A stretch of 64,000 nt of DNA from Prochlorococcus sp. AG-409-O23 (GCA_003215355.1 QCKL01000001.1:51001-115000); one strand, 5' to 3'; positions 35,521 through 54,253 are shown, counted from the stretch's first letter. Notes: generated from the letters alone by a model not told the origin. Numbers and translations: made by a program.

Positions 35521-35586
35521 GCAATCAAGAAAACAATTTCACGAAATGGTAAGCATCTAGGCCCAATCTGAAAGAAAAATGTCTTG

Positions 35587-35607: not shown

Positions 35608-35639
35608 TTAAGCGTGCGCTAGTCTCTGAAGGTGAGATT

Positions 35640-35666
35640 TTCACGCTATTCACGCTATTCACGCAT
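35640..35666. repeat. three tandem 9-bp direct repeats just upstream of the znuC start
   Basis: TTCACGCTA, TTCACGCTA, TTCACGCAT, ending 6 nt before the TTG at 35673. Confidence 0.85.
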
Positions 35667-35672
35667 TCTTGA

Positions 35673-36368
35673 TTGACTAATCTCATTGCAAAAAGCCTGT
35701 CATTTTCCTATGGCAAAGAATCTGTTCTAAAGGACATTTCTCTAGAGCTGAAAACAGGAACTCTTACAGCTCTTGTTGGTCCAAATGGAGCAGGAAAATC
35801 AACCTTGCTGCGCCTATTACAAGGTCAGCTCATCTCGCATCAAGGAGAAATTTTTTTAGATGAGCATCCTTTAGGAGCAAATCGAAGTCAAGTTGCATTA
35901 ATGCCTCAAAGAAGCTCTATCAATTGGAATTTCCCTATCACTACTGAAGGATTGGTAGCACTGGGTCAAATGAATGCTGCCAATCAATCATGTTGCAAGA
36001 CAGAAGCCTCACTTCAACGGGTTGGTCTTGCCGCTTTAGCTAAGAAACGACTTGATTCACTGTCTGGAGGACAGCAACAAAGAGCCTTACTTGCAAAAAC
36101 GCTGGCACAAAATGCATCTGTTTTCCTTTTGGATGAACCCTGTGCGGCACTTGACCCTCCATCCAGGGAGCAGTTTCTAAGCATTATTCGTCAGCTTGCT
36201 AAAGCGGGGTTAACGATATTTGTCAGTAGCCATGACTGGGGTCAAGCTTTAAATGCTTACGACAAAGTCATAACACTTGATCGAACTGTTTTGGCCTTTG
36301 GAACTCCAGAAGAGGTGAGAAGCAAGCTTCAATCAATTAGTAGTATGGGTAACCACTGTTGTGACTAA
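35673..36368 (+). CDS. znuC: metal ABC transporter ATP-binding protein
   Basis: Walker A GPNGAGKST, signature LSGGQQQR, Walker B FLLDEP. TTG start. Confidence 0.85.
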   Translation: MTNLIAKSLSFSYGKESVLKDISLELKTGTLTALVGPNGAGKSTLLRLLQGQLISHQGEIFLDEHPLGANRSQVALMPQRSSINWNFPITTEGLVALGQMNAANQSCCKTEASLQRVGLAALAKKRLDSLSGGQQQRALLAKTLAQNASVFLLDEPCAALDPPSREQFLSIIRQLAKAGLTIFVSSHDWGQALNAYDKVITLDRTVLAFGTPEEVRSKLQSISSMGNHCCD

Positions 36369-36375
36369 TCAATAT

Positions 36376-36807
36376 TCAGGTTTCAGCCACTTTCTGACGC
36401 TGGTGACAACTCTTACAAAGGCCAAAGAATTCAAGTGTATGAAACAAAAGCTCAAAGTTTTTTGTTTGCGTCTTAGGCAATTCAATGTTTTTGATTGGAC
36501 AGGACTTCAAAACAACTGTTTGACCACAGTCAACACAAGTCAGATGATGATGGTCCCTACTCACAGGGCTATAGAGAGTCTCGCCTGTTGGGAGGTTGCG
36601 ACATCGAACCAATCCTTTCTGCTGAAGAGTGCGAAGGTGTCGATAAACAGTAGTCAACCCCATATTGGAAGACCCTTCGATCAATTTGCGATGAAGTTGT
36701 TGGCCGCTGATCTCATCAGCACAATTGTTCAACTGCTCCAATATATTTTGTTGACGAGTCGTCAAACCAGTGCTTTGCTCGACCATTCTCTGAGGTGTGA
36801 ATCTCAT
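36376..36807 (-). CDS. zur: Fur-family transcriptional regulator, probably zinc uptake regulator
   Basis: Winged-helix region (GLTTVYRHLRTLQQKGLV), HHHLTCVDCG and CKSC metal sites. Embedded in the znu locus. Confidence 0.8.
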   Translation of the reverse strand: MRFTPQRMVEQSTGLTTRQQNILEQLNNCADEISGQQLHRKLIEGSSNMGLTTVYRHLRTLQQKGLVRCRNLPTGETLYSPVSRDHHHLTCVDCGQTVVLKSCPIKNIELPKTQTKNFELLFHTLEFFGLCKSCHQRQKVAET

Positions 36808-36836
36808 GCCTTTACCAAGATTAATCTTTTAGTTCA

Positions 36837-37625
36837 TTGTTAGAAGCATTTTTCACCAATTGGTGGGCTTTACCATTCCTAATGGCACTTTTAATCGGAA
36901 TGCTTTGTCCTGCAACTGGTGCTGTCTTGATCACGCATCGTCGCCTTCTCCAAGCCAATTTAATTTCGCATGCAGTAGTTCCAGGGATAGTCTTAGCTCT
37001 GGCTATAGGAGTTGATCCTTCATTTGGTGGGGTGCTTAGTGGATTAGTCGGGGCTCTTGTTGCAGAAAGACTTGCCTCAAAAAGCAAAGGAAACAATGAG
37101 GGGATCATTAATACTGTTCTCGCAGGCACACTTGGCTTAGGGGTTTTATTGATTCCTCTTTTAGAGATAAGAGTTGATCTGGAATCTATTTTATTTGGAG
37201 ATCTTCTTGCCGTTGGGACAGATGATCTAATGAGAACCTTAGTCGCTGCAATTGCATTACTCCTACTCTTAAGAACTTCATATCAGAAATTGGTATATCT
37301 TGGCCTAGACGCTGAAGGTGCAGCTGCTAGTGGTTTAAATGTTTCTTCATTGCGTTTAACACTTGGCCTTGTAACTGCCCTCGTTGTTGTGAGTTCTATG
37401 GCAGCTGTAGGTGTCATTTTGGTTATAGGTTTGCTCTCAGCACCAGCTATTTTTGGCTTAAGTCATGCCCCTAGCTTGCATTCTGCAATGGTACGTTCTG
37501 CTGGGTATGGAACTCTATTGACATTTATAGGTTTTTTGCTTTCGATTGGCTTTAACCTTTCACCTGGCCCTCTTATAGGAGTTCTTTGCTTACTTTCTGT
37601 ACTGTTTCTCAAAGAGAAAACGTGA
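36837..37625 (+). CDS. znuB: metal ABC transporter permease (ABC-3 family)
   Basis: 262 aa with about 8 TM helices. N-terminus WWALPFLMALLIGMLCPATGAVLITHRRLLQANLISHAVVPG is typical of ZnuB/TroCD-type permeases. Confidence 0.85.
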   Translation: MLEAFFTNWWALPFLMALLIGMLCPATGAVLITHRRLLQANLISHAVVPGIVLALAIGVDPSFGGVLSGLVGALVAERLASKSKGNNEGIINTVLAGTLGLGVLLIPLLEIRVDLESILFGDLLAVGTDDLMRTLVAAIALLLLLRTSYQKLVYLGLDAEGAAASGLNVSSLRLTLGLVTALVVVSSMAAVGVILVIGLLSAPAIFGLSHAPSLHSAMVRSAGYGTLLTFIGFLLSIGFNLSPGPLIGVLCLLSVLFLKEKT

Positions 37626-37977
37626 ATAAATTAGAGGCAGGTAAGTCCATTGCGAACTAGCAATCGTTATCATTTTTTTAATAAAATTCTTTTGCGATTG
37701 TCATTATCCAAAGAATTGGCCAATCATGGCTGATCTCAGGGCCTCCAGGCTGCGGCACGGCTACCTAGGGGCTAATCGCAATGTAGAAACAAAAAGGTGC
37801 ATGGGTCTATTTGCACCTCGCTTGATACCCATTCTTCTACCTGAACAACAAGCACAGCGTTTAGAAAAATAGATCCCAGGAATCATCAATAAGCAAATTG
37901 AAGTGGCATTCTTGAGAAAATTACATTTACCAAATTTATTGTTATATCTAAAAAAATAGCCTCTAAAAAAGCAAGTT

Positions 37978-38724
37978 TTAATAGTTCTTTCCGACAGTAG
38001 ACTGCTGTCTAACTAACTCAAAGAACTCTTGTTTAAGATTAGGGTCATGTCGGAAATCTCCTCTGACCACCGAGTTGATCATGCTGGTATCTGGCTCTTT
38101 AACTCCTCGCCACTTCATGCAATAATGTTGTGCTTTTATAATTATTCCTAGCCCTTTAGGATTACATAGGTTCTCAATTTCATCAGCAAGTATCATTACG
38201 GCCTCTTCCTGAATATGAGGCCTAGAAAATACCCAATCTGCAACTCTTGCAAATTTTGAAAGGCCAATGACTTTATCTCCAGGCTTAATGCCTATCCAAC
38301 AATCCCCAAGGATTGGGACCAAATGATGTGAGCATGCAGATCTAACAGTTATTGGTCCCACTGTATAAATTTCATCTAAATTTTTATCATTTGGAAAGCT
38401 AGTGACTTTTGGCTGCTTATGATATCTACCTTTGAATACTTCATTGATATACATCCTAGATACTCTTTCTGCTGTTTCCTGAGTGTTATGGTCATTGTCA
38501 ACATCAATCAAAAGAGTTTTAAGCAATTCTCTAACCCTAGTTGCTACCTCTCTTTCTAGAGTTTCTAGTTCACCAGGCAATATATAATCGGAAATATTAT
38601 CATTAGCATGAAATCTAGCGTTATCAGATTTAATCCTTGAGCGAATTATTTCAGAAACCAACTTGCAAGAAAACCTTTCTTCACTCCCCTCATTAATATT
38701 TTTGGTTGGGTTTGTACTAGTCAT
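37978..38724 (-). CDS. folE: GTP cyclohydrolase I (type IA)
   Basis: VRSACSHHLVPILG...VIGLSKFARVADWVFSRPHIQEE, the FolE zinc and catalytic motifs. Confidence 0.88.
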   Translation of the reverse strand: MTSTNPTKNINEGSEERFSCKLVSEIIRSRIKSDNARFHANDNISDYILPGELETLEREVATRVRELLKTLLIDVDNDHNTQETAERVSRMYINEVFKGRYHKQPKVTSFPNDKNLDEIYTVGPITVRSACSHHLVPILGDCWIGIKPGDKVIGLSKFARVADWVFSRPHIQEEAVMILADEIENLCNPKGLGIIIKAQHYCMKWRGVKEPDTSMINSVVRGDFRHDPNLKQEFFELVRQQSTVGKNY

Positions 38725-39315
38725 AGTTAACTGTAGATCAACAAGGTAGCGAGAGCTATTAAGTAATTACGTTAGAAAAGCAGTGAGACTATAGCACATC
38801 GATTGAAAGTCCATCTCAAGAAAAGCAATCATAGACAAGGATGTCCTATTTAATACATTCGCTCAAAGCATGGGAGACTAAAGCAGGAATTAAAACTCAT
38901 TTAAATTGCGGGTAAAGTGAGTATAAGGAATTTTCTCTTTGATTGAGGGCAAAGACGCAGACCAAATAGAGCTAACTCAAAACTTATTGTTTATCGTCAT
39001 AGCCTATTCAAAATACTTGCGAGGCACGATGAAGACAGCCTTTGCAAGCCAAGCAGGCTTATCCCAACTCAGTCAAAATCGTGAAAAAGCCTACGCAAAA
39101 AGCGATATGATTGATTTTCACTGTTAGCCAATGAAAAAGTTGGCAGGCATTAGAAGTAGAACCATATCCACAAGCTCAAGAAAAGTCGTCAACCCTTATT
39201 TTTAACTTTTTTAGCCGCTAAAAAATCATATAACGAGCTAGTTAAAGGGCAATGCATAAACCAATGTCTAATTTCTATATTCAAGCCTTATTACGCAATG
39301 GATCGCAAATCATGT

Positions 39316-40470: not shown

Positions 40471-40620
40471 CTAGCAGTTTTACTTATTGATATTGAGTCT
40501 AAATCAACAGGACATGGCCGCCAAAACTACTAGTGAGATGCCCACGGAAAGCAGAAGTCTTCCTCAGCAAGCTCTGTCCACACTCAGCCCGGAAGTTCAA
40601 ATTCCGAACGATCGACTGCT

Positions 40621-40654
40621 CTGACTGACTCCTCATGCCGCTAATGAAAAGCGA
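40621..40654 (+). repeat. copy A of the EVE-gene 5'-end derived repeat (core GCTAATGAAAAGCG at 40640-40653)
   Basis: CTGACTGACTCCTCATGCCGCTAATGAAAAGCGA aligns with ATGACTGACATATCCTATTGGCTAATGAAAAGCGA at 53117-53151. Confidence 0.65.
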
Positions 40655-40855
40655 ACCTGTTTTCCAGCTTGTTTCTTATAGCTAGAGTTTCAGGGGATTC
40701 TCGTGAACACTAGTCTTACTTTTTCAGCTGTGATCTATCAAATCTATAGGTTTCTTGCTCCCAATAGCTCTTGATCACTAGTAATAGCTAGCTTAGTTTC
40801 AAGGAGGGGATAACCCCCAATCAATAAAATTGAAGTAGTTAAGGAGCCATTTCTT

Positions 40856-41284
40856 ATGTTGACGGAAACTATTAGCATTCAAACCAGTTCCTCATTCTCG
40901 TGCCATTCCATCACTGAACGAATTCAGAGCTTTATAGATACATCTCAACAATTAGAAGGTGTTATTTGTGCTTCTGGTAAACACACAACGACAGCATTAA
41001 TCATCAATGAGATGGAAGAGAGATTGATCTTGGACTTAGAGAAGTGGTTGAAAGAATTAGCTCCTCCTCTTCAGGGCTATAAACATGATGACTTGCATCT
41101 TAGAGAAAACATTCCAGAGGATGAACCGAAGAATGCTCACTCCCATATGCAAGCACTTCTTCTGGGTAATTCCGTAAGTATTCCCTTTAAAAATAGCAAG
41201 CTTCAGCTAGGTCAATATCAAGATGTAATTCTTGTTGAACTAGATGGACCAAAAGAAAGAAGCGTTGTAATTAGTATTCAGTGA
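40856..41284 (+). CDS. yjbQ: YjbQ/UPF0047 family protein (secondary thiamine-phosphate synthase-like)
   Basis: HTTTALIINE...NAHSHMQALLLGNSVSIPFKNSKLQLGQYQDVILVELDGPKER, the family signature. Confidence 0.8.
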   Translation: MLTETISIQTSSSFSCHSITERIQSFIDTSQQLEGVICASGKHTTTALIINEMEERLILDLEKWLKELAPPLQGYKHDDLHLRENIPEDEPKNAHSHMQALLLGNSVSIPFKNSKLQLGQYQDVILVELDGPKERSVVISIQ

Positions 41285-41344
41285 TATTCATCATATTTAA
41301 AAAACTAGATTGTATGGATTGAGGTCAAGAAAGGTTTTGTCCTG

Positions 41345-43063
41345 TCACGACGAACAGCTGTAGTGGGATACTCCCCCGACGTTGAAAAAATTCTTGGGCT
41401 TTAAGCGGTCGTACTTCATCTCTACATCCGATGATTGTTCATCGTAGGGATTGCTGAGCACAGCCTGTAGCTCCCTGACAAGGCTGTAATCACCTTGTTC
41501 AGCGTTCTTATAAGCAGGTGCGATCAGCCACTCACGCCAGGTGTACTTGGGGTTGATAAGTTTCATCGCTGCAGATGTCACTCTGATGTCACCGCAGCTA
41601 TTGATGCGATCTCTCCACCGTTGCAGCCAGCCACCCCACCGAGCTTCTAACTGTTCGGAACTAGGCAGGTAGAAGCTCTCTTTCAAGGCCGTGAGTTGGT
41701 CTGGAATGTGAGAAAGCTTTCGAAAAAAAATTGTGTAGTCCACTTTGGAGAGAACCAAAAGCTGCAGCATTTCATTCACCAAAGTTTCGTCATAATTGAT
41801 CAGGCCGAGCTTCTTTGCCCACATAGCCTCGATCTCCTGATTCATAGCTTCGGCAAAGCCATCTCGGGTCTTATCTAACCTTGCCAGTGCCTCCGTATCG
41901 TCAGCAAGCAGAGGTCGAATCGCTGCCCAGAACATCTGATAATTGGCTTCAGCAGCAACCTGTTGATTAAAGAAAGAAAAATGGTCACCGCCTCCGGTCC
42001 AGGGCTGAAATCTGGGATCGAAAAGTTCGCAGAATCCAAAGGGGCCGTAGTCGAGGGTGAAGCCACCCGCTGCGCAATTGTCACTGTTGAAATTGCCCTG
42101 GCAGTAACCAACGCGCATCCAGTTGGCTACCAATGACGTGAGCCGTCCACGAAACAAATAGGCCAGTTCGACCACTTGATCGGTGAAGGGAAGACTCAGA
42201 TCAATCACTGGCTGGTAGTTCCGCTCGATCAGATGCTTCACGATCATCTGCAGCTCATTGAGCGCACCCTGATTTCCAGTACTGCGTGCGCGACGGGCAA
42301 ATAGCTCAAGCTGGCCGACACGCAGAAAGGACGGAGCGACACGTGTTGTGATTGCCGCAGGGTTGTCCACAAAAATGTCTGGATCGATGGACCTGGAATC
42401 CTTGGAGTACCAAGGTCTGCGCACTGATTCAGATCTGGAAACATACAGCGTCAAAGAGCGTGAGGTCGGAACTCCTAAAGCGTGCATATAGTCCTGCGCA
42501 AGAAACTCACGCACGCTGGAACGAAGCACGGCACGTCCATCAGCGCCACGGCAGTAAGGCGTAGGACCTCCGCCTTTCAGTTGCATCTCCCAGCGTCTGC
42601 CGTTGAAGAGCCCTTCGAAGACAGAAATTGCCCGGCCATCGCCATAACCGTTGCCGGTTCCAAACGGGCACTGCTGTATATATTCAGTTCCATAGATAGA
42701 CAGGGCATAACCGGTAGCCCAACCAACCTGACGCATTGGCTCCCGCGCAACGGAGATGTCGCCTGAAAACAGACGACGAAATTGTTCGTCGAAGGCAAGC
42801 TCATGGCTTAGGCCCAGTTCGTTAAATAACGTTTTGCTATGCGCGATGTATTCCGGCGCTGGAATGGCAGTGGGGGTAACCGGTACGTAATGGCCCGAGA
42901 ACACTTGGCGAGGGTGGTGATCACGGCCATCAACAGTCGCCTGAGGATCAGCTTGAAGTGAATCCATTAGCGAATAATCAGCCCGTTGTGAAAACTCAGC
43001 GAAAGTTTTTGTTGTCGGCGATTCGAACGCGCTTGAGATGGCTGGCATTGGGCCGATAGTCAC
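41345..43063 (-). CDS. selO: protein adenylyltransferase SelO (YdiU/UPF0061 family)
   Basis: 572 aa with a pseudokinase-fold signature: [45 protein letters not shown]. Ends in SCSS with Cys at the antepenultimate position. Markedly higher GC than its flanks. Confidence 0.9.
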
Positions 43064-43453
43064 TTTTCTCTAAGGTTTTGAACTGCCTGGGCACAACCTT
43101 GTTGGTGAGGTCATCATCGGCGTCTTAACTATTATCGACTAATAGAGAAATAGCCCTCAATGGAAGTAGTAAAAATGATTTAATCATGAAGGCAATGGCC
43201 CTTTTACTGGAAGCTCTCTATAGCAGTTAGGACATGTAACGCTGTCCTGATCAAACTCCAAACTCAATGGCATCATAGATATGGTTAGATTTTCCGAGAG
43301 CTAATGAGCTCCGCTAAGTGCAAACAATTAATTACAGAAAGACATTGCCATGAAGTGAGACATAAACTGCTCAACAATAAGAAGCAAGTTGGACCCTAAT
43401 ATGTGAAAAGCCCTAGCTTTTAATGGATTTATCTCTTCTTCAATGATTTCTCT

Positions 43454-43891
43454 TTGCTTTCAAGACTAATTATGCGCCGCTTACTACTTGCCTTTCTTAT
43501 CGCAACAACATTTTTTCTTGCTCCTGTAGCAACATTTGCATCCGCTACAGATTTATCACCTGCAGTGTCAGATTTAAGCAAGAAGTTTTCAGAGAAATTC
43601 TGCACTTCACTTAAAAAGGGAATGACTCCTGAGAAGGCTGGGCAAAGCGCTGCAGTTCAACTTTCTCAAGGCTTACTCTTCTCACCTGTTATGAATGAAA
43701 TAATGTCTGCTCCAAAAGAAGATTTAGCCACTTCACTATCTAATAATATTTTTGATAGCTGCGGAAACGACCTAGGAGGGACAAAAGAAGAACTTGATGA
43801 TCGTCTTGCTAGCTTAGCAAATAAAGTTCCAAGTGAATCTAAGGGTTTGAATTTACCTCCAGTTCGACAAAAAGAACCTTTAAGGTATTAA
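43454..43891 (+). CDS. hypothetical secreted protein
   Basis: Signal peptide (LLLAFLIATTFFLAPVATFASA). 145 aa. Confidence 0.5.
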   Translation: MLSRLIMRRLLLAFLIATTFFLAPVATFASATDLSPAVSDLSKKFSEKFCTSLKKGMTPEKAGQSAAVQLSQGLLFSPVMNEIMSAPKEDLATSLSNNIFDSCGNDLGGTKEELDDRLASLANKVPSESKGLNLPPVRQKEPLRY

Positions 43892-44343
43892 TTATGATTT
43901 ACTTACCTGTTACATCGGTAAAGACAAAATAATTGAAATAGCCAAACCCCATACAGTAAGCATTAAACTAAGTTCCTACATACTTCGATTAATAGGTATA
44001 TTCCATAATTTTGCAAAAGATCATTGAATAAATAATTCTGACAAATATCAGCAGCCAACAAATTGCAATCTTCTGGATTTAATTACACTAAGTGAAATCA
44101 GCATTCCAAGGCAACACCTAATTGATTTGAGGACGAGAAAAAGCACACAATAGATCCATATCTTAGTAAAAATAAAGGGAGCTTTAATCTGCTACTTACC
44201 TAATGAGCAAACAATTACTAGTTATCAATCAGCAACTATAAGGTATGCATGAATTACAAAAAAGCGTTGTCAAAATAAATATCTTCATTATTAAGTCAAA
44301 CTAGCAAAGCCTTATGAGGCAGAGCTCATTTCTTTTGTGTTCA

Positions 44344-44772
44344 ATGGATTTAACTGTCAATTCTCATTTGGTTATTCCATCCAATGAGCTGAAATGGCGC
44401 TTTTCTAAATCTTCAGGCCCTGGTGGACAAGGTGTAAATAAAACTGATAGCAAAGTTGAACTTATCTTCGATATAGGCCATTCCTCTGTAATTGGACATT
44501 TTCACAAGAAAAGATTGCTTGAACGACTAGAGAATCGATGTCTTAATGGTTGCATTAATATCGTTGTATCGGAGGAGCGCTCCCAATATCAGAACCGACA
44601 ATTAGCATTGGCTCGTTTGGCAGACATTTTGCGAGAGGGCTTAAAAGCACCTCCAAAGACCAGGAAAGCAACTAAGCCAACTCGTGCATCCCAAAAACGT
44701 CGATTTGACGCCAAGAAGCGCCGAAGTGCGCTAAAGCAAAAACGTCAAAGCAAACCTTCAACAGATGACTGA
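44344..44772 (+). CDS. arfB: alternative ribosome-rescue factor ArfB (peptidyl-tRNA hydrolase, RF-1 domain)
   Basis: GGQ motif (SSGPGGQGVNKTDSKVEL) and a basic C-terminal tail. I chose the ATG at 44344 (MDLTVNSHLVIPSNEL) because its distance to the GGQ motif matches ArfB. The track ORF starts at 44314. Confidence 0.8.
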   Translation: MDLTVNSHLVIPSNELKWRFSKSSGPGGQGVNKTDSKVELIFDIGHSSVIGHFHKKRLLERLENRCLNGCINIVVSEERSQYQNRQLALARLADILREGLKAPPKTRKATKPTRASQKRRFDAKKRRSALKQKRQSKPSTDD

Positions 44773-45084
44773 ATTTAGATCTGCTCCTTCAACATTTTGG
44801 CGGCAATAGGAACAAGACCAATGCAACCAAAAGCTCCTAACAAAAAGAAACCGTCAATTGCTTGGATACTTATTGCGATAGCTTTTGTCGGTGGAATGGT
44901 CTTACATTACCAGCACTATCCATCACCAGAGACAAGAAGAGAGATGTCCGTAGAAGGAATGTTTGCTGATTAAATAATAGAAAGTAAATAAAATATAAAT
45001 CCTTGCCTTGGTTGACAAGCAAAACAAGTCAAGGCATTACTTTTGATATCAATTAAAAAAGAATTATGAGCACAGATATCATTG

Positions 45085-45279
45085 CTATCCAATCCCTGGT
45101 ACGTGAAAAGGAAGCTTGTCGCCTACTGACACCAAGAAGCTTTGAACAGCAGGTACACGTAATAGGGCTAAAGGAAGAACAATGTTCAATACAATCCATG
45201 CTCCTCCAACGATTGGTGCCCATTTGCCAAACTTTTTGAGAAAGCCTTTTTGGTCTTTTCCCTCTGCCATTGTTTTCAA
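45085..45279 (-). CDS. small membrane protein (64 aa)
   Basis: One TM helix (WAPIVGGAWIVLNIVLPLALL). Confidence 0.4.
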   Translation of the reverse strand: MKTMAEGKDQKGFLKKFGKWAPIVGGAWIVLNIVLPLALLRVPAVQSFLVSVGDKLPFHVPGIG

Positions 45280-45553
45280 AAGAGTTAAAGCCTTGATTCT
45301 TTCTAGCTATCTATGGTGCTTATAACACTAAAGTAGGATTATTTTCACAAGGCTTGGCATAACACTTGTTGAGATAGCTAGCAAGAACAAGATTCCTCAG
45401 CAGCCAAGCCTATTGAGAACAAGCATATCTTTTATCTAATGCGATCTGTTTTGAATTAGAAGTACCTAGCGATTAGGTTAGAAGGTAATTTGGGTGCCAA
45501 GTTCTTTCGCCATCCACCCATTGGAATACTGCTGAAATCCAATGGGGCAAAAG

Positions 45554-45680
45554 GAAATTAACTATTGGCTAATAAAAGCGGCATTTAAGTGACTGAAAGG
45601 TATTACAAGGAGTTTGAAAAAATCCATACGCTCCAAATACACACCTCCCTTCTTTAATAAGTACTGGCTAATGAACAGTT
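45554..45680 (+). repeat. copy B of the EVE-gene 5'-end derived repeat plus shared tail (core GCTAATAAAAGCG at 45568-45580)
   Basis: GAAATTAACTATTGGCTAATAAAAGCGGC...TATTACAAGGAGTTTGAAAAA...CTTCTTTAATAAGTACTG aligns with copies C and D. Confidence 0.7.
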
Positions 45681-45785
45681 AAAAACTCTTGAATGAGTGA
45701 ATTCTGAGTGATAGGGCTAAATCCATTCAAACTTGATAATTTTACCAAGAATCTTCATCAATGATGATTACTAATTTCTGATAAA

Positions 45786-46697
45786 TTAAATCCTGATCTT
45801 TTTCTTGCTACTAGAAGTACAACTTAATTTCAATCTTTTGATTCTTCCATCATCCCAAAGCCAGTAAACAGGGTCAGCTGCTTTTGCTTTACGCAAATCA
45901 ACCCTATCTCGCAAACTGACAGGAATAAATTCTTTATCTGGCTCGAAATCCTTATCTCTTACTGCTTGATTCAGTACCATACTGCCCTCTTTACCTGAAA
46001 CAGATTGGTGATAGGTACCAGTTGGAATCTGTAAAGCACCCATTCTTTGATTGAGGTAAATCACGTGATGGGGCTCATCCCAATCAGGGTTGAGCAAGGT
46101 AAAAGTACGTCTTCCATCTAAGACTAAGTTGTGATCAATCTGATGGTAGTGAACATAATATTGCTCAAAATCATCGTCATTAGGAGGAGAGGTTGCAGCT
46201 CCATGGTGAATTACCACATCAGATCCATTAGAGCCGTTGACTCCTGCATCAAAGAACGTGACTTGAGGAGTTTCCCTAAAGACATGAGTTGGGACAAAAT
46301 TGAGCGTTGTGTTTTTTTTCTTTTGTGCTTGATTCCACTTGACTTTGATGTGTATTGAGTCATTTAAACTTCTCAAAACTGGACAGTCCCTGGTGGCTTT
46401 CTGTAAGACCTTTAATTGATCTTCTTTTAAATCAACTGGCATCTCAATTTGAAGTGATAAAGATTCAATTTTTCGAGCCCCCTGAGTTGTCATCTTCTTA
46501 TCAATTGCAATTGTTATTTCCTCTAACTTCCACCCTTCTTCTTTTGCGGTGATTCCCATCACTGTAAGAAAACAAGTCCCTACAGCTGTAGCCAATAAAT
46601 CAGTAGGAGCAAAACTCTCTCCTTTGCCTGCATGGTCAATAGGAGCATCTGTTCTAAGCTTTTGTCCAGAACGCTCATGCAGAGCTTCTGTATGCAA
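45786..46697 (-). CDS. OsmC/Ohr family domain fused to a cupin-like C-terminal domain
   Basis: N-terminal 120 aa: GKGESFAPTDLLATAVGTCFLTVMG...ATRDCPVLRSL (OsmC). C-terminal 170 aa: YYVHYHQIDHNLVLDGRRTFTLLNP...LQIPTGTYHQS, a cupin/RmlC-like pattern. TTG start. Confidence 0.65.
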   Translation of the reverse strand: MHTEALHERSGQKLRTDAPIDHAGKGESFAPTDLLATAVGTCFLTVMGITAKEEGWKLEEITIAIDKKMTTQGARKIESLSLQIEMPVDLKEDQLKVLQKATRDCPVLRSLNDSIHIKVKWNQAQKKKNTTLNFVPTHVFRETPQVTFFDAGVNGSNGSDVVIHHGAATSPPNDDDFEQYYVHYHQIDHNLVLDGRRTFTLLNPDWDEPHHVIYLNQRMGALQIPTGTYHQSVSGKEGSMVLNQAVRDKDFEPDKEFIPVSLRDRVDLRKAKAADPVYWLWDDGRIKRLKLSCTSSSKKKIRI

Positions 46698-47098
46698 ATC
46701 TCCTAGATATCGACAAACAATCCTGTCTACACTTCGTAGAGCTTACAAGAGGATTTTGTGGGATGAACTTTGCATATCTCTTCCCAAAAGTCACCACGTT
46801 TTTCATTCGGCAACTTGTAAGAGAAATCATGAATATGACCAATATCTCTAAGTGGGTTAGCAACAACAGTAAAAGGAGTTCTTAGTTTCATAACTCTCCT
46901 ATTCGGTTACTTCCTTTCTAACACATCTGTAAGAATTACATATAGGGCTTTTACTCAAGTATTTGTGCTTTACGGTTCTTTCTAACTAAAGTGTTGTTAG
47001 CCGAATTGGGTGATACTTACCGAATCAATTTATTCGGTTCCCAGTATTAGTAATTATAAAGATCTAGAGCAAAGTAAGGGGGTCTCGCAAGGGTAATC

Positions 47099-47356
47099 AT
47101 GTACACCTCTCTATTCGATACTTTCTTTACCGACTCTTTCTTCTCACCTGCTAGGACTGTTTATGTTGTCTCTGATAGCCAACTAGAGGAGATCAAGCGT
47201 AAGCAACGTCAACAGGAACTCGACAATCTTGAGGCGTCCCGTAAGAGGCTCGAAGAGACCTACCAATCTCGCATCAAAATTATTGATGAGCGCGAGCATG
47301 AGCTTCAAGAAGAGCTAAAAGCTCTAGCGCCAGAAAAAAACACACGCCCAGACTGA
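47099..47356 (+). CDS. hypothetical coiled-coil protein
   Basis: 85 aa, rich in Glu, Lys, Arg and Gln. Confidence 0.4.
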   Translation: MYTSLFDTFFTDSFFSPARTVYVVSDSQLEEIKRKQRQQELDNLEASRKRLEETYQSRIKIIDEREHELQEELKALAPEKNTRPD

Positions 47357-47919
47357 TATGTAATCACGTACTCCTTTTGAAAGGACAAGCCAACTCAATG
47401 GGAGAAACAGAAGTGTGTTTGAGAGCAAATGACTAAATCCGCTGTGACTGAAAGGAGCTGTAAGAAGTCCCCACCATGGATACCCCCCCTCCCATTAGGA
47501 GGTTCCAATTTCCACCAAAGAAGACCTGGTCAATTAGCTCCTGAGACCAAGCGATCGCAATTAAAACTAAAGGAACTAACAGTCGAACTGATCCATTCAC
47601 ACCAAAGACAAACCACTCTTCTTTAATGACTCTGACATGCTGCTAAAGCCGCAGATATCAAGCCAATCCAACCGCAACACAGACCTATGCCACCTTTCCA
47701 AATCAAGGCTTGATTCCACAGAAGGGATTACCTATCCAATCTATATCATCTAGGCATTAAGGCGTATTCACAAAAAATACAAGTCGCTTTAAGGTTTTCT
47801 TTATCTTTGTTTCTTACTTTTATTTGGTCTCACCTAGAACCTCCACCCTGTTGAAGTGGGCACTAGTGGATGCCTGTGCATGAGTGCTATCAATTACGTC
47901 GATACAAGCTTCCTAAAGC

Positions 47920-48118
47920 CAGGACATACACTTCAGCAAGAGGCGTAACGGGCATTGGCATCTATGCCAAAGGAACATTGGAAGCTGTGTATACAGGTGG
48001 AGATCTTTCCATCAGTCAAATTCAATCGATGACTACCGGTGATGCATCAGCTACCGCGATGGCCAACAAACTATGGAGTTATCGAGGATCTAATACTGTT
48101 CCGGCTTTATTGGATTAA
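47920..48118 (+). pseudogene. orphan 3'-terminal fragment homologous to the C-terminus of the downstream RTX/Calx-beta gene
   Basis: ARGVTGIGIYAKGTLEAVYTGGDLSISQIQSMTTGDASATAMANKLWSYRGSNTVPALLD versus AHGVSGIGIYAKGTLEALYTGNERSITEIQGMTTGDASASAMNNTKWSYWGNDTVPSLLA: 42 of 60 identical by hand. The upstream part of the 47870 ORF is unrelated. Confidence 0.7.
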
Positions 48119-48259
48119 AGGCTAATCCCTAATTAACAAGGCAGGTTGCTGCCTTTCAACAACATTTCAAGGGTTCAATGACAGTTAAGAAGCTTAAAGC
48201 CAAAACTTGTCATAGGCGAACTAGAAGATCTAGCTTGAAGAAATGGAAGTGATCTGAAA

Positions 48260-50572
48260 GTGTCCATTTCATTTACTAATGACAGGGACCTACTGCGGTT
48301 CGAATGGTCAGGGAGTCTTTCTGACCAAGCGATCATATATAACACCGCTAATAATCAAATTGCAGATACGATTACTCCACACAATGTTTGGATAGATAGA
48401 CCACCAGTAGCAATTGGAAATGCTTGGAGAGAAATCTATCCAGGAACCTCATACGGTCCATCTAATGGTTTTGAGATACTTTACGACAACACCCCTGGAG
48501 ATGATTTTGGTTATTGGGGACGAACTATTTACAATAGGAATGAACCTGAATGGCCAGCACACTCTGAAGTATCTGGTATTTCTAAAAATAATAATTATAA
48601 AGGAGACGAAGAGTATTTTCGTTATGACATGAATGGAGATGGGAAAATTGAGGATCTTTCATATCTCTCAGTATCTGACATCAGCATAACCGAAGGAGAG
48701 TCTGCTTACTTAACAATTACACGAGATGGTGTTAGCTCTCCAGGGGGTGACTACCTCTCATTCTATATACATACGGAAGTAGCTGTAGGCAATGGAACAG
48801 CAACTGAAGGGGATGACTTTAATTTAAGCTATTCCTGGATGTCTGGTCACGTTACATTTGCCTTAGGAGAGTCTAGTACAACTATCCTAATAACTGCAAT
48901 TGATGATTCGATTAGCGAATCCGATGAGACAGTCACAATAACATTTAGGCCGTGGGCAAATACTGGATTAGGCTATGATCGCCTTTCAAAGTATGCCGTC
49001 AGTTCAACTCTCACAATAATAGATAATGATAGTCCTACTTATTCACTAGGAACAAATTCTAGCGTGAATGAAGGAGAGTCTTTTAATACAAGAGTTACTA
49101 CTACCAATGTCTCTCAAGGAACTACTCTTTACTTACAATGGAGTGGTTCAACTCTTACACAATCAGACCTTTCATCGGGCAATCTACAAACATCTGGAGT
49201 GGTTGGCTCAGACGGTAAAATTACTTTTGAACACACAATAGCCAATGATTTAAATACAGAAGGAAATGAAAAAGTTGAGATAAAGCTTTTTAGTGATTCG
49301 GCTTATACGCAGCAGGTTGGCAATACAGCTACGGTTTGGATTGTTGATACCTCTTTAGGGGTACCAGGCTATTACTCAATAGCAGATGTTCAGGCTTATG
49401 AAGGAGATAATTTGTCTGCAATAGTTACACGAACAGGCAGTACATCTGTAAAAGATCTAACTGTTTCTACTGCGAATGGAACAGCCTTTGCTGGATACGA
49501 TTACACCACTCCAGCATCCACACTTTCATTTGCAGAAGGGAGCACTTCTGCGGTTCTTTCCATTGCCACATTAGAAGACGGAATTGTCGAATCTGATGAA
49601 ACATTCACAATCAATCTCTCTTCTAGTGATAGTTCAATCAACTTTACAGATTCCTCTGCAACAGCAACAATTTTGAATGACGATAGCGCCATTACAACAA
49701 CGAATGTTGTCTATAACACCACCACAATTAGTAATACCACCAATGTCACCAATTCAACGACAATTAATAACGTGACCTGGAATGTTTATAAATTTGGTGA
49801 GTCCGCCAAAGCCGAATATGTTGTCAACGAATGGTTTGGTAGCTCTACATCGTCTATTAAGCAACAAACAGATGTCCTTGAATCCAAGCTTCTTGAAATT
49901 GAGACCAGCACGTGGGGAGAGGACATCTCAATTAATCGTGTAGCTCAAGCCTCTGATTCAGGAGACTACTTGCAAGCTAAACAGTCAGAAGCGGCTACCA
50001 ATCGTGCTGCCGATGCCAAAGTCGGCTCAGTCATTGATGGAGGGAAAGGCGTCGACACCCTCCGGGGATTAGGAGGTTGGGATGTTCTAGATGGTGGTGA
50101 TGGAGATGATTTGATTCATGGCGGTAATGGTCGCGATGTAATCAGCGGTGGTGCTGGTGCCGATGAGCTCCATGGTGATTTTGGTTGGAACACCTACAAA
50201 TCAGTCAAAGACAGCTCTACAGACTTAATTGCTATTAAGTCCGACCAATGGCTCTCCAATTGGTGGTATGGCAAAGCCTATAACAGTCCTAATGGCGAAA
50301 AATGCGACATCATCGAAGGTCTAGACAAGCGAGATCAAATCAAAATCATTGGTGTTTCTACCAATGAACTCACCTTTACCAACGCTTCTGCCCATGGCGT
50401 TAGCGGCATTGGCATTTATGCCAAAGGAACCTTAGAAGCTCTCTATACCGGCAACGAGCGCTCCATTACTGAAATACAAGGCATGACCACCGGTGATGCC
50501 TCAGCTTCTGCGATGAATAACACCAAATGGAGCTACTGGGGAAATGACACCGTTCCTTCTCTGTTGGCTTAG
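48260..50572 (+). CDS. large secreted Calx-beta repeat / RTX calcium-binding repeat protein
   Basis: Calx-beta-like modules (ISITEGESAYLTITRDG...GTATEGDDF...ITAIDDSISESDETVTITF; VQAYEGDNLSAIVTRTG...GTAFAGYDY...LEDGIVESDETFTINL), an Asn/Thr-rich linker, and GGxGxD nonapeptides (GGKGVDTLRGLGGWDVLDGGDGDDLIHGGNGRDVISGGAGADELHG). GTG start and no N-terminal signal, consistent with type I secretion. Confidence 0.85.
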   Translation: MSISFTNDRDLLRFEWSGSLSDQAIIYNTANNQIADTITPHNVWIDRPPVAIGNAWREIYPGTSYGPSNGFEILYDNTPGDDFGYWGRTIYNRNEPEWPAHSEVSGISKNNNYKGDEEYFRYDMNGDGKIEDLSYLSVSDISITEGESAYLTITRDGVSSPGGDYLSFYIHTEVAVGNGTATEGDDFNLSYSWMSGHVTFALGESSTTILITAIDDSISESDETVTITFRPWANTGLGYDRLSKYAVSSTLTIIDNDSPTYSLGTNSSVNEGESFNTRVTTTNVSQGTTLYLQWSGSTLTQSDLSSGNLQTSGVVGSDGKITFEHTIANDLNTEGNEKVEIKLFSDSAYTQQVGNTATVWIVDTSLGVPGYYSIADVQAYEGDNLSAIVTRTGSTSVKDLTVSTANGTAFAGYDYTTPASTLSFAEGSTSAVLSIATLEDGIVESDETFTINLSSSDSSINFTDSSATATILNDDSAITTTNVVYNTTTISNTTNVTNSTTINNVTWNVYKFGESAKAEYVVNEWFGSSTSSIKQQTDVLESKLLEIETSTWGEDISINRVAQASDSGDYLQAKQSEAATNRAADAKVGSVIDGGKGVDTLRGLGGWDVLDGGDGDDLIHGGNGRDVISGGAGADELHGDFGWNTYKSVKDSSTDLIAIKSDQWLSNWWYGKAYNSPNGEKCDIIEGLDKRDQIKIIGVSTNELTFTNASAHGVSGIGIYAKGTLEALYTGNERSITEIQGMTTGDASASAMNNTKWSYWGNDTVPSLLA

Positions 50573-50764
50573 AAGTTTGAACGAAAGCGAACCCCTATCA
50601 ACTAAAAAGGAAGTATGAGCACAGAGATCATTTGCTTTTTCTTGCTTGGAATCGCAGCATTGCTTCTAAATGCTGGACTCTCTTCTCAAGTTCTTCCACT
50701 CTTTTGGTTAGTTCTTCCATTGCTCATCAAAATCAGCTTCGAAGCTATTCAAAGACACGCTACT

Positions 50765-51262
50765 GAAAACAGCTAGAAAGAGATTGAGCTCTAGATAAAT
50801 GGTTGAAAATCTCAGTCACATCTCCTTGCCCTGAAAGCACTATCAACGAGCTAGGGATAAAACAATGGCCAATCTGGACTTGCGAATCGAGTTCATTCCC
50901 TTGGACTTACAGCGAAAAGGAGACCTGCCTATTACTTGAAGGAGACGTAACCGTTACTCCCGATGGAGGCGATCCTGTCAGGTTTGGGGTTGGTGATCTG
51001 GTCATTTTTCCTTCAGGGATGTCTTGCACATGGGAGGTGCATAAGGCAGTCCGCAAGCACTATCGTTTTGGTAACTAGCAAATCAATAAAAAACTGAGAT
51101 CCAGGGTTTACCCAAACCGCCCATTGTCGCCAAAACCGCTTGCTATGACTGACATCTCGTATTAGCTAATGAAAAGCGGCGCTGGAGTGGTAGACAGGGA
51201 TTACAAGGAATTTGAAAAATCGATACAAACCTCTCTTCTTTAAAAAGTACTGATTGATCAAT
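50765..51262 (+). repeat. roughly 0.5-kb duplicated block, copy 1 (cupin gene plus copy C of the EVE 5'-end repeat; core at 51165-51178)
   Basis: Colinear with 51995-52485 at an offset of 1230 nt through the cupin CDS. Contains ATGACTGACATCTCGTATTAGCTAATGAAAAGCGGCGC, a truncated EVE 5' end with a stop at codon 7. Confidence 0.8.
50803..51078 (+). CDS. small cupin (DUF861/cupin_3-like), paralog 1
   Basis: 91 aa: WPIWTCESSSFPWTYSEKETCLLLEGDVTVTPDGG...GDLVIFPSGMSCTWEV. 81 of 91 residues identical to the 52033-52308 product. TTG start. Confidence 0.72.
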   Translation: MKISVTSPCPESTINELGIKQWPIWTCESSSFPWTYSEKETCLLLEGDVTVTPDGGDPVRFGVGDLVIFPSGMSCTWEVHKAVRKHYRFGN

Positions 51263-51396
51263 AAGTGAAAATGAAAGAAGAAAAGCCACGCACCAATAAA
51301 GAAGACAGCAAAGGAAATATTGAGGATTCTCTACTGAATTATGAATACGACGAAGATGACGATGGTATCGATTGGGAGACCCAATAGAACTAAGGG

Positions 51397-51570
51397 ATGA
51401 GATATCGCATTACCAGACACGATGGGGAAGAAGATGACATCTCATCTCAGGATTTCGACAACTACGAGGATGTCTACGACTTACTAGAAGCAATCTACGG
51501 AGACATGTGCTGCTCAGATGCTGACTACGAAGACCGTCCTTACTATGAAATTGTTGAAGAGAAGGCTTGA
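51397..51570 (+). CDS. small acidic protein (57 aa)
   Basis: TAAGGGA precedes the ATG. MRYRITRHDGEEDDISSQDFDNYEDVYDLLEAIYGDMCCSDADYEDRPYYEIVEEKA. Below the track cutoff. Confidence 0.4.
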   Translation: MRYRITRHDGEEDDISSQDFDNYEDVYDLLEAIYGDMCCSDADYEDRPYYEIVEEKA

Positions 51571-51593
51571 TCGAACATTATGGAGTTTTTCTT

Positions 51594-52028
51594 ATGACAA
51601 GAATCAACTTGATAAAGCCAAGTGAATTATCTGATCAACATCTAATTGCGGAATATAGAGAAATTTTCATGATTGGCTCAGCACTCCAACGCTCAATAAA
51701 GTCAAAGGGTTGGGAGAGAACAAAAGAAAACTTGCCCAAAGAATTCACCTTGAATATTGGGCACGTCAAATTCTTCTATAACAAAGGGAAATACCTACAC
51801 AAAAGATATTTAGACCTAATAGCTGAAATGCAAAGTCGAGGAATGAATCCAAATCTAGAGCGCCAATTTAAAAAAGAGCAGTGGCCAAATGAGTTATATC
51901 AAGACTGGAATCCTAAAGAGAAAGACTTGCAACTTATAAGGAAAAGAATCACAGAAAAAATCAATCAAAAGCCAGATTGGTATCGCTGGACAAAGAAAAC
52001 AGCTAGAAAGAGATTGAGCCCTAGATAA
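51594..52028 (+). CDS. denV: pyrimidine dimer DNA glycosylase (T4 endonuclease V family)
   Basis: MTRINLIKPSELSDQHLIAEYREI... matches the T4 DenV N-terminus [24 protein letters not shown], and later GHVKFFYNK and KPDWYRW also match. The catalytic N-terminal Thr2 requires the ATG at 51594, not the track start at 51567. Confidence 0.85.
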   Translation: MTRINLIKPSELSDQHLIAEYREIFMIGSALQRSIKSKGWERTKENLPKEFTLNIGHVKFFYNKGKYLHKRYLDLIAEMQSRGMNPNLERQFKKEQWPNELYQDWNPKEKDLQLIRKRITEKINQKPDWYRWTKKTARKRLSPR

Positions 52029-52485
52029 TTAGTTGGCAATCTCAGTAACATCTCCCTGCCCTGAAAGCACAATCAACGAGCTAGGAATAAAACAGTGGCC
52101 GATATGGACTTGCGATCCCAGTAAGTTCCCTTGGACATATAGCGACAAAGAAACTTGTTTAATTCTCGAAGGGGATGTGACCGTTACTCCTGATGGAGGT
52201 AAGCCTGTCAGGTTTGGAGTCGGCGATCTAGTTGTCTTCCCTAAAGGGATGTCTTGTACATGGGAAGTGCATAAGGCAGTTCGGAAGCATTATCGTTTTG
52301 GCGACTAAAAAATCTATGAACCCCTGAGATCGAAGGTTTACCCAAACTTTACCCAAACCGCCCATTTTCGCCCAAATCCCTTGATATGACTGAAATTAAC
52401 TACTGGCTAATGAAAAGCGGCGCTTTAGTGGTGGAAAGGGATTCGGAGGAATCGCTAAAATAAATACAAACTAAATACACACTTT
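51995..52485 (+). repeat. roughly 0.5-kb duplicated block, copy 2 (cupin gene plus copy D of the EVE 5'-end repeat; core at 52406-52419)
   Basis: Contains ATGACTGAAATTAACTACTGGCTAATGAAAAGCGGCGC and an internal 11-bp tandem duplication, TTTACCCAAAC x2. Confidence 0.8.
52033..52308 (+). CDS. small cupin (DUF861/cupin_3-like), paralog 2
   Basis: See paralog 1. TTG start 4 nt after the denV stop. Confidence 0.72.
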   Translation: MAISVTSPCPESTINELGIKQWPIWTCDPSKFPWTYSDKETCLILEGDVTVTPDGGKPVRFGVGDLVVFPKGMSCTWEVHKAVRKHYRFGD

Positions 52486-52486
52486 T

Positions 52487-52969
52487 TCAAAGGAAAGAAG
52501 GGTCTAGAAGTGATGGTCGGTAAGAAAGCAAGAATGGTCTTTGTTCACTCTTAACTGCAGTAATCACATCTTCTCCTGTGTGCCAAATCCATTGTTGTTG
52601 AGGAGATCTGCCATCAACATCCACACTTGTACCAACTGGAGGACCAAAACGATGTCTTAACCCTGCCAATACTTCAGTCATATTTTCATAGTCCATTTCA
52701 TAAACAAGCTGTTTCAATCCATACGCCTCTTCAACACGAACACGCAGACTGTTCACAGGTAAACCACTCATCTGAAAATCTGTAACTTCAAAAAGATCCC
52801 TATTCAATCCTTCCTGAACAGGTTTTAAAGAAGTCCCAAGATGCTTCTCTACATTTGAGAGATCCATCCCCCACGACAAACCTTCCACACACGCAATTGC
52901 AGGTTTAGGCGATAATTGAATAAGCAAAAGAAATAAAGCTATCGCAACGTATCTAAAAGCCTTCGTCAT
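52487..52969 (-). CDS. hypothetical secreted protein
   Basis: Signal peptide (IALFLLLIQLSPKPAIA). 160 aa. Flanked by AACTAAATACACAC direct repeats at 52469-52482 and 53077-53090. Confidence 0.5.
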   Translation of the reverse strand: MTKAFRYVAIALFLLLIQLSPKPAIACVEGLSWGMDLSNVEKHLGTSLKPVQEGLNRDLFEVTDFQMSGLPVNSLRVRVEEAYGLKQLVYEMDYENMTEVLAGLRHRFGPPVGTSVDVDGRSPQQQWIWHTGEDVITAVKSEQRPFLLSYRPSLLDPSFL

Positions 52970-53116
52970 TTAAATGCCTTTATTCCTTTCTAAAGAAGAA
53001 CCTAGCTTGCTCTGTAGACCAATCATGCCTTTTATGAGCCATCAAACTTAAACTGGTTCCATACACACCAAATACCAACTAAATACACACTCTACAATTC
53101 TCGCAAATCCCTTGCT

Positions 53117-53584
53117 ATGACTGACATATCCTATTGGCTAATGAAAAGCGAGCCAGATGCATACAGCATCACTGACTTGAGAAGAGAACAAACAACCCTA
53201 TGGGATGGGATACGCAATTATCAAGCCAGAAACTTTATGAGATCAATGTCAATTGGCGATCAAGCATTCTTTTACCACTCTAATTGCAAGCCACCTTGCA
53301 TTGTTGGGATGATGGAAGTAATCAATATTTCGATCATTGACCCAACTCAGTTTGATCCAAAATCGAAATATTATGATCCAAAGTCTAAACAGGAAAGTCC
53401 AAAATGGGACTGTTCAGAACTGAAATATTTGAGTGAATTTAGTAGTCCTATAACACTTGAAGAGTTAAAGAAAACTTACACCAGTGAAGATCTTCAAGTC
53501 GTACGGAAAGGAAATCGTCTCTCCATAATGCCTATCAAGAAAGAAATCGCAGAAGATCTAATTAGACAATCCGGTTTGCTCTAA
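53117..53584 (+). CDS. EVE (PUA-like) domain protein
   Basis: YWLMKSEPDAYSITDL...WDGIRNYQARNFMRSMSIGDQAFFYHS, the EVE domain signature. Its 5' end is the source of the repeats (copy E, core at 53137-53150). Confidence 0.8.
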   Translation: MTDISYWLMKSEPDAYSITDLRREQTTLWDGIRNYQARNFMRSMSIGDQAFFYHSNCKPPCIVGMMEVINISIIDPTQFDPKSKYYDPKSKQESPKWDCSELKYLSEFSSPITLEELKKTYTSEDLQVVRKGNRLSIMPIKKEIAEDLIRQSGLL

Positions 53585-53946: not shown

Positions 53947-54253
53947 CTGAAATTTCTCGAATGACCACTAGTTCTCCACAGATAAAGGAACTAGTCAAGA
54001 GTCCCGCAACATGCCTTGTCTCAAGCGGTCTCACTCTTAGAATCTAGACTCGGCAAGAGAGCTTGCTGCAGGCTGCTCTGTTCATATAGCTACGGAACAG
54101 AACTCGTCAAGCAAATACCGCCCAGAAAGACAGTTTTTCCACAAGCCCTAACCGTGCCAAAGATTTAAGCGTTATCCCTGTGGAATAATTGTGGAATACC
54201 TTGCTAAATCGAGGGGAAATATAAAAGCAATCCGAAATGATCAGGCACGCTAA

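Follow-up and report, generated by a model that had tools for sequence, protein, structure and literature searches.

The subject of this analysis is a 64,000-nt stretch of the genome of Prochlorococcus sp. AG-409-O23 (GCA_003215355.1, QCKL01000001.1:51001-115000), termed the window, in which an array of direct repeats lies upstream of an intact gene for an EVE-domain protein. The repeats derive from the 5' end of this gene, and the intervals between them hold unrelated cargo modules. We characterized the repeats and modules of the window, compared them with EVE loci of other genomes and of metagenome contigs (numbered with the prefix L), and searched for a recombinase or a free element.

Repeat copies and modules at the EVE site

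The 14-nt core of the repeats, GCTAATGAAAAGCG, occurs exactly at 40640, 51165, 52406 and 53137, on the + strand only, and a further copy at 45568-45580 reads GCTAAT-AAAAGCG, which is GCTAATGAAAAGCG minus 1 nt. No match to the core was present in 100 dinucleotide-preserving shuffles (chance expectation 0). A sequence-only reading of the window had described five copies in one orientation; these five stood, and the array proved to be longer. An nhmmer profile built from tail-bearing copies (three from the window and four from related loci) added + strand copies at 28866-28908 (E 2e-6) and, weakly, at 39104-39137 and 45657-45679, and found no copy on the - strand of the window. The array at the EVE site spans ~28.9 to 53.15 kb and comprises the following copies, in which the head precedes and includes the core and the tail follows it:

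28866-28908, + strand: copy Z, outermost, degenerate EVE head plus core (TCTGTTGATATGACTGAGCTTAATTGCTGGCCAATGAGAAGTG); nhmmer E 2.3e-6
39104-39137, + strand: copy Y, tentative, weak head-like sequence GATATGATTGATTTTCACTGTTAGCCAATGAAAA; nhmmer E 0.009
40611-40659, + strand: copy A, degenerate head, exact core at 40640-40653, EVE-like continuation AACCTG
45538-45650, + strand: copy B, head remnant (E 6e-6), core with 1 nt deleted, T1 tail (E 5e-8), repeat CCAAATACACAC
45657-45679, + strand: copy B', second core TACTGGCTAATGAACAGT, 77 nt past B; nhmmer E 0.002
51126-51236, + strand: copy C, head (E 5e-10), core at 51165-51178, T1 tail (E 5e-13) with the box AGGGATTACAAGGAAT
52337-52482, + strand: copy D, head, core at 52406-52419, T1 tail, tandem repeats on both sides
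52337-52358 and 52462-52482: repeats of copy D, TTTACCCAAAC twice and AAATACAAAC/TAAATACACAC, respectively
53068-53150, + strand: copy E, the live site, arm repeat CCAAATACCAAC/TAAATACACAC at 53068-53090, promoter region, ATG at 53117, core at 53137-53150

The core of copy E occupies codons 7-12 of the intact EVE gene. Copies C, D and E have 53 nt in common, which take in the ATG and the first codons as well as upstream sequence and the core; over this head the gapless identity to D is 85% for E and 77% for C. The frame of C opens with an ATG at 51145 and reads ATG ACT GAC ATC TCG TAT TAG, with its stop at codon 7, and that of D opens with an ATG at 52386 and reads MTEINYWLMKSG. After the core, a tail of 48-60 nt is common to B, C and D (profile E 5e-8 to 5e-13), and the short repeat AACTAAATACACAC was found at 52469 and 53077 only, on either side of the last module. 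In outline, these features, together with the EVE-like continuation of copy A, had been described from the sequence alone and were reproduced here; the shuffles and the profile E-values also place the copies beyond chance. Likeness to the live head E drops with distance from the EVE gene (46/53 positions in C, 45/53 in D, 41/53 in A, 39/53 in Z, 38/53 in B and 35/53 in Y), which is an age gradient. In addition, C and D lie within a larger duplicated unit of a cupin gene plus head (83% and 80% identity), and the region of B' is homologous to 51223-51271, after copy C.

Each head carries, 30-45 nt upstream of its ATG, two direct repeats of 9-11 nt in tandem (period ~11), and a second such pair closes each tail, 50-60 nt after the core. 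The motifs of these arm repeats include ATTCTAGCA, ATACCAGCA, GTTCACAC, GTCCACAC, GTTCACGAT, TTTACCCAAAC and TTTACTCAAAC, and in the window AAATACACAC. When the tail repeat of copy i was compared with the head repeat of copy i+1, and a longest common substring of at least 9 was scored as a match, the arms agreed in 17 of 36 modules, or about half, whereas 19% of mismatched pairs did so. Exact matches of 18-20 nt were observed in L022, L011, L105 and L103, and in the D-E module of the window the tail of D and the upstream arm of E have 15 nt in common (AACTAAATACACACT). Two modules were empty, with tail, repeat pair and next head in direct succession: L109 594->717 (123 nt) and B-B' of the window, a module without cargo. 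A tandem 9-mer pair styled like the arm repeats, TGTGGAATAATTGTGGAATA with period 11, also lies at 54179-54198, between DUF2811 and DUF1818.

Two further repeats were noted in the window. At 16253-16292 (GGCTAATGGCCAATAGGGATCAAAGGGATTACAAGGAATCC), an exact 16-nt copy of the C tail box AGGGATTACAAGGAAT follows the core-like GGCTAATG; this place, 12 kb past the apparent left end of the array, could mark a scar of much greater age. The other repeat, of 37 nt (89% identity), covers the starts of two small open reading frames (ORFs; MSTDIIA... and MSTEIIC...) at 45047-45083 and 50596-50632, and its position ~500 nt before B and before C points to a former homology between modules A-B and B-C at their right ends.

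The modules, named after the copies that bound them, carry unrelated genes, and the Pfam annotation agrees with the earlier gene list:

28909-39103: module or modules Z-Y, fatty-acid desaturase, AbrB, cyanophage outer-membrane-protein (OMP)-like protein, znuA, znuC, zur, znuB, GTP cyclohydrolase I; probably a composite of modules
40654-45537: module A-B, UPF0047/YjbQ, SelO, a 145-aa secreted protein, ArfB-like RF-1 domain protein
45581-51125: module B-C, OsmC-cupin fusion (- strand), 85-aa ORF, RTX/Calx-beta protein, Cupin_3 (50803-51078)
51179-52366: module C-D, small acidic ORFs, denV-like pyrimidine-dimer glycosylase, Cupin_3 (52033-52308)
52420-53097: module D-E, one gene, for a 160-aa secreted protein (52487-52969, - strand); same repeat motif at both ends
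53117-53584, + strand: EVE-domain gene, intact, the integration target in the model below; Pfam EVE 4.4e-55
27358-28569, - strand: left flank of the array, 2OG-Fe(II) oxygenase (27358-27990) and AbrB-like regulator (28213-28569); Pfam

The SelO gene (41345-43063) forms a stretch of 54% GC (0.539 at 42-43 kb) vs 41% for the window, a contrast that fits a foreign origin of module A-B. In module B-C, an 82-aa ORF located 5' of the RTX/Calx-beta gene copies the C-terminal 190 nt of that gene (47928-48117 vs 50382-50571, 72% identity) and looks like the remnant of a second RTX gene.

Arrays and module exchange in other genomes

The gene order EVE, DUF2811, DUF1818, rpoZ ... groEL, which forms the conserved right flank in the window, is kept in Prochlorococcus, Synechococcus and Cyanobium, and the left side is variable. 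Most of the Prochlorococcus EVE loci examined carry 1-4 additional EVE-head copies upstream of the EVE gene, and the array-bearing loci come from both high-light (HL) and low-light (LL) clades; many are from single-cell assemblies, and MIT 9314 and MIT 1307 are isolates. In more than 20 other loci, ~45 further copies were identified, all on the EVE strand and all upstream of EVE, with none on the - strand or downstream of EVE. The architecture was alike in 10 metagenome contigs from one metagenome scan. No array was found at the Synechococcus, Cyanobium and non-cyanobacterial EVE loci examined, nor at four Prochlorococcus loci, of which L005, L020 and L021 have deviant cores (TGGTTAATGAA or TGGCTTATGAA) and L120 is a short contig with merely 2.4 kb upstream of EVE. 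Across all copies, TGGCTAATGAA is the invariant portion of the core, and divergence starts directly after it.

The presence and position of modules vary among relatives, through gain, loss and permutation, and several of the breakpoints lie in the core. First, L101 7823-10039 corresponds to L103 880-3086 at 95% identity, and both end in the core; this module adjoins EVE in MIT 1307 (L101) and lies 7 kb from EVE in a single-amplified genome (SAG; L103), and what follows the core is the EVE gene in one genome and a tail in the other. Second, in the set L007, L022, L078 and L006, a three-gene module of HL strains, M, stands beside EVE in L007 and L078 and is the outermost of three in L022, the order being X, Y, M, EVE in L007 vs M, X, Y, EVE in L022. 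Third, L101 and L103 also contain the window's unit of cupin gene plus head (~86% identity), which terminates in the core there; window 52000-52414 is 85.6% identical to L101 1614-2029. The left 225 nt of module D-E also occur at an internal array position in metagenome contig L111. Furthermore, window 33574-37618 (OMP-like/znuA/znuC/zur/znuB) shows ~90% amino acid identity to L114 14540-18576, from another SAG; compared with 67-70% for the neighbouring core EVE gene, this value suggests recent transfer of the zinc-uptake module.

The EVE gene of the window is intact, and across loci the EVE body is conserved, with a 5' end that differs according to the arm type. In a comparison of nine HL loci, identity over the 400 nt that follow the core was 86-96% (90-96% without the divergent L006). 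Over the 86 nt that precede it, identity was 50-68% (one pair 75%) where the arms differ and 93-99% where an arm is shared. L011 and L012 are identical over 120 nt past the core and unrelated ahead of it. At the protein level, the exchange appears as different N-termini, namely MTEINYW, MTEPNYW, MTEEKFW, MPQQEPSYW and MADKNISYW.

Cargo at the EVE site of other loci included nitrite reductase plus a nitrite/formate transporter (L118 2989-5736), PhoX alkaline phosphatase (L009 7463-9268) and a PstS-like/MFS/GAPDH/ArsR cluster (L119 6023-9909). Beside EVE in Prochlorococcus sp. MIT 9314 (L015 8499-9800) lies a gene for a 433-aa protein with a ubiquitin-family domain (2.9e-24) and an autotransporter beta-domain. 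On the left flank, the 2OG-Fe(II) oxygenase of the window is 74% identical in amino acids to that of L118 (671-1300), which also stands just left of the outermost EVE-head copy of its locus. The only known RNA gene of the window, for tRNA-Val (1931-2002), is 27 kb from the array. A second variable spot was seen at window 59597-61732, between secG and groEL, where an N6/N4 DNA methylase is encoded in the window and in L119, and a small serine recombinase (Resolvase) in L118; nothing stands there in the other loci.

Proposed mechanism, recombinase search and alternative explanations

We consider it probable that serial site-specific integration has renewed the EVE 5' end time after time, leaving integrase-less cassettes upstream. 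This process had already been proposed in the sequence-only reading, which named two refuting outcomes, copies no more alike than chance and one identical arrangement in all relatives; neither was observed, and the proposal is supported by the module mobility and the EVE 5' swap described above. In the model, the additive island at ~28.9-53.15 kb would have grown by repeated integration of circular DNA into the first EVE codons, with a crossover inside TGGCTAATGAA(AAGCG), at codons 7-12. The incoming attP-like site would consist of a P arm, the core and a P' arm; the P arm would bring two tandem repeats of 9-11 nt, then a promoter-like spacer and an ATG with ~6-9 EVE-like codons, and the P' arm a tail of 45-60 nt with another pair of these repeats behind it. 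A crossover at the core would join the P arm of the element to the EVE body and provide a new promoter and N-terminus, and the former 5' end would stay upstream, fused to the tail of the element, as a dead stub (Z, Y, A, B, C and D). An element arriving later would use the live site again and shift the older modules outward.

The agent would most likely be a tyrosine integrase of the lambda type, with an N-terminal domain that recognises the tandem arm repeats. These are read as putative arm-type integrase sites because of the analogy with lambda-type attP and with a Synechococcus element, L116. Since imprecise excision would not keep both arms, the modules are better understood as cassettes that lack an integrase, retain complete arms and would be moved in trans, now or in the past.

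Several observations weigh against this model. The first group concerns the enzyme and the free element. No integrase was found by Pfam, in line with the sequence-only reading, among 46 ORFs of the window (every ORF of 130 aa or more not in the conserved right flank, and several shorter). The same negative result came from ~49 ORFs of related and metagenome loci (Pfam or PHROGs; not every upstream ORF scanned) and, for six additional loci, from precomputed Pfam annotations of the genes upstream of EVE; the genome loci with annotated upstream ORFs covered in this way were 21 Prochlorococcus loci. That reading had also advised a search of viromes and metagenomes; the metagenome scan gave the 10 contigs with the same array architecture, and no phage-borne site was found in the viral collections. 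IMG/VR held no free attP or element for queries with core plus tail, head plus core, the HL tail box, the commonest arm repeat and the T2/T4/T5 head, and the GenBank phages gave no DNA match to two att regions or to contig L108. The second group concerns the site itself. About half of the modules have no matched arms, and at least 12 distinct arm-repeat motifs share one core, which would require many cognate integrases, of which none was seen. Some module boundaries lie off the core (for example, L022 1536 and L007 1009), and given these, deletions or other rearrangements act as well. Within the tail, the head sequence around the ATG also recurs in inverted form, symmetric about the core; this symmetry reached significance in 3 of 15 copies and was weak in the others, and we regard it as tentative.

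The off-core boundaries would also suit a replacement island built by homologous recombination, with the EVE gene as anchor and the partial copies arising from unequal crossing-over or Campbell-type insertion of DNA carrying the EVE 5' region. The heads, 45-55 nt long and 75-95% alike, could support RecA-dependent events, and recombination between repeats could yield the empty modules. The position of the break speaks against this explanation, as it falls ~20 nt inside the coding region, at an invariant core of 11-14 nt, and not at the edge of the conserved gene. Every stub then runs into a conserved non-EVE tail and a repeat pair, and when the tail was tried as a diverged continuation of the EVE coding sequence, the similarity was not significant. 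Adding to these the single orientation of all copies and the matching of arms within modules, we judge homologous recombination improbable as the source of the array.

The anatomy of the copies allows another explanation, in which a mobile regulatory unit, formed of a promoter, a leader peptide and a terminator, was duplicated to drive or insulate neighbouring genes and the repeats are not recombination scars. A head does contain promoter-like sequence, an ATG at the distance expected from a ribosome-binding site and a short ORF, and a tail might stop read-through. Yet the cargo downstream is often on the opposite strand, as are the gene for the 160-aa secreted protein and OsmC-cupin, and the permutation of modules and the EVE 5' swap would be left unexplained. 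Moreover, the tail had no Rfam match as a known RNA, and as a structured RNA it folded no better than shuffles in five of six cases (z -0.6 to +0.8; the sixth, z -2.8). A regulatory unit of this kind seems very improbable, even more so than homologous recombination.

Returning to serial integration, the search for a recombinase extended beyond the scans already given. The tested ORFs of the 10 metagenome contigs held no integrase, and phmmer searches with three integrase-like proteins against all six-frame ORFs of the loci returned nothing. A regular-expression screen for tyrosine and serine recombinases was likewise negative and counts for little, since it was too strict and missed three integrase-like controls, one with a firm Pfam Phage_integrase match and two with faint ones. 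No replication module (primase, helicase or polymerase) appeared in the Pfam results for the window modules. The 19 matches of one IMG/VR scan were chance matches inside phage polymerase and other genes.

Locus L116 (Synechococcus sp. UW140, UCOB01000003.1; 1898-3319 and 17404-17662) is an integrative element of 15.6 kb that targets 6S RNA, with a firm Phage_integrase gene and a T7-like single-subunit RNA polymerase. Its direct repeats, 54 nt long, overlap the 6S RNA gene (Rfam 98 bits) at the 3' end of that gene. Three TGTGGGTAC 9-mers stand in tandem in each arm, and one of these sets immediately precedes the integrase gene. By analogy, L116 would represent the arm design of the EVE modules with the enzyme present, and it lends indirect support to serial integration.

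Metagenome contig L108 (FUFK010054611.1; 456-5786) has an EVE-type att copy followed within 3 kb by a MarR-like gene and a gene for an 821-aa T7-like RNA polymerase, ~27% identical to cyanopodovirus polymerases; 38 such polymerases were found in picocyanobacterial assemblies. Followed as a lead to the enzyme, its homologues stand beside integrase-like genes (L114-L116), but no EVE-type site is present there, and the lead was rejected. At L114 7845-9431 and L115 4704-6224, in two Prochlorococcus SAGs, 506-528 aa proteins with a faint Phage_integrase signal are encoded just upstream of the T7-like RNA polymerase, and the pair in L114 sits between ychF and a znu cluster.

The integrase-free state of the cassettes could also be original. 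In an integron-like platform, they would never have had an integrase, and a host-encoded or unlinked recombinase that recognises the tandem repeats or the imperfect palindrome would insert, excise and shuffle them. This explanation agrees with the lack of an integrase in annotated ORFs upstream of EVE in the 21 Prochlorococcus loci and in the tested metagenome ORFs, with the small size of the cassettes (0.7-5 kb), which are permuted across genomes and sometimes empty, and with the partly palindromic site around the core. It does not accord with the right flank, which consists of ordinary conserved genes and links no recombinase gene to the platform, or with the cargo, which lies on both strands with its own spacers, unlike promoterless integron cassettes. 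The diversity of arm motifs argues for many specificities and not for one host enzyme, and the integrase-bearing Synechococcus element has the same arm design. An integron-like platform is, in our assessment, unlikely, although less so than homologous recombination.

Significance and comparison with known systems

Prochlorococcus is the most abundant phototroph of the ocean. To our knowledge, it has no plasmids, no conjugation and no known competence. For the gain of niche-defining genes by its islands, the published explanation is that of tRNA-targeting tycheposons. The EVE start adds a previously unlisted, protein-coding docking point for mobile DNA in HL and LL clades, where the cargo of the sampled genomes covers zinc uptake, nitrite assimilation, phosphatase and phosphate-binding functions, DNA repair and surface proteins. 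As small, signal-bounded and recombinase-free units, the cassettes offer a clean system for the study of a trans-acting enzyme, of arm specificity and of the cost or function of EVE rewriting. In addition, the signature of head, core TGGCTAATGAA, tail and tandem 9-mers is a search key for delimiting cassettes in metagenomes.

The closest counterparts are found in the same organism group. The tRNA-anchored islands of Prochlorococcus arise by serial or tandem integrations separated by partial tRNA copies, and the targets listed for tycheposons are seven tRNA/tmRNA genes only (bioRxiv 10.1101/2020.12.28.424599). The EVE site resembles these islands as an additive island at a fixed site, with outward push and partial target copies, with ecologically relevant cargo (znuABC here; nirA/focA, phoX and pstS-like genes in relatives) and with most of its content not an intact element. 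It differs in its target, the 5' end of a protein-coding gene and not one of the seven tRNA/tmRNA genes, and in that no integrase or replication module was seen in the annotated ORFs at the site. The EVE modules are short cassettes with paired arm repeats, and each event would rewrite promoter and N-terminus. Of the features that define tycheposons, a tyrosine or large serine recombinase of the tycheposon clade, a replication module and a tRNA/tmRNA site, none was seen in the modules annotated.

Entry at the 5' end of a conserved protein gene is itself well known. SXT/R391 at the prfC 5' end and dusA-specific islands at the dusA 5' end supply a replacement promoter and 5' coding sequence, and site-specific entry at such a position is what they share with the EVE modules. 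They are large, integrase-bearing and usually single or double, whereas the EVE arrays comprise up to five or more integrase-less cassettes, and their targets and hosts are unrelated to the EVE case. At fda of Streptococcus thermophilus, integrative and conjugative elements (ICEs) and cis-mobilizable elements (CIMEs) accrete, and some mobilizable islands borrow an integrase. These, too, form tandem att-flanked modules, some of them integrase-less and thought to be moved in trans. In contrast to the EVE arrays, in which no resident integrase was seen, an integrase-bearing ICE is normally resident in the array, and the target is a 3' end. Lambda-type attP and L116 have a core with tandem short direct repeats ~35-60 nt away on both sides, as the EVE site does; L116 has a tyrosine integrase beside the repeats and the EVE arrays have none, and binding to the repeats is putative in both picocyanobacterial cases.

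Integrons and integrative mobile elements exploiting Xer (IMEX) at dif share with the EVE site the same-orientation array at one site, insertion that regenerates the site, and cassettes without their own recombinase that can be shuffled. We take the EVE-site core not to resemble dif. The EVE site differs from integrons in having no linked intI (the flanking genes are EVE, DUF2811 and DUF1818) and in carrying cargo on both strands, and an attC-type hairpin fold was better than in shuffles in one of six EVE sites (z -2.8). A broader formulation would be a genus-wide cassette system that is neither tycheposon nor integron, in which integrase-less cassettes with matched arm pairs are inserted, excised and reshuffled in trans at the EVE start, each event rewriting promoter and N-terminus, and in which the repeats or the palindrome would be signals of a recombinase that the cassettes do not carry. 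We put this forward as a tentative possibility, and as one that is doubtful at present.

A full-text literature search combining Prochlorococcus genomic islands with the EVE domain found no paper. Measured against the systems above, the mechanism belongs to a known kind. The novelty lies in the target and how general it is across Prochlorococcus, in the integrase-less cassettes with matched arms and in the repeated rewriting of the N-terminus.

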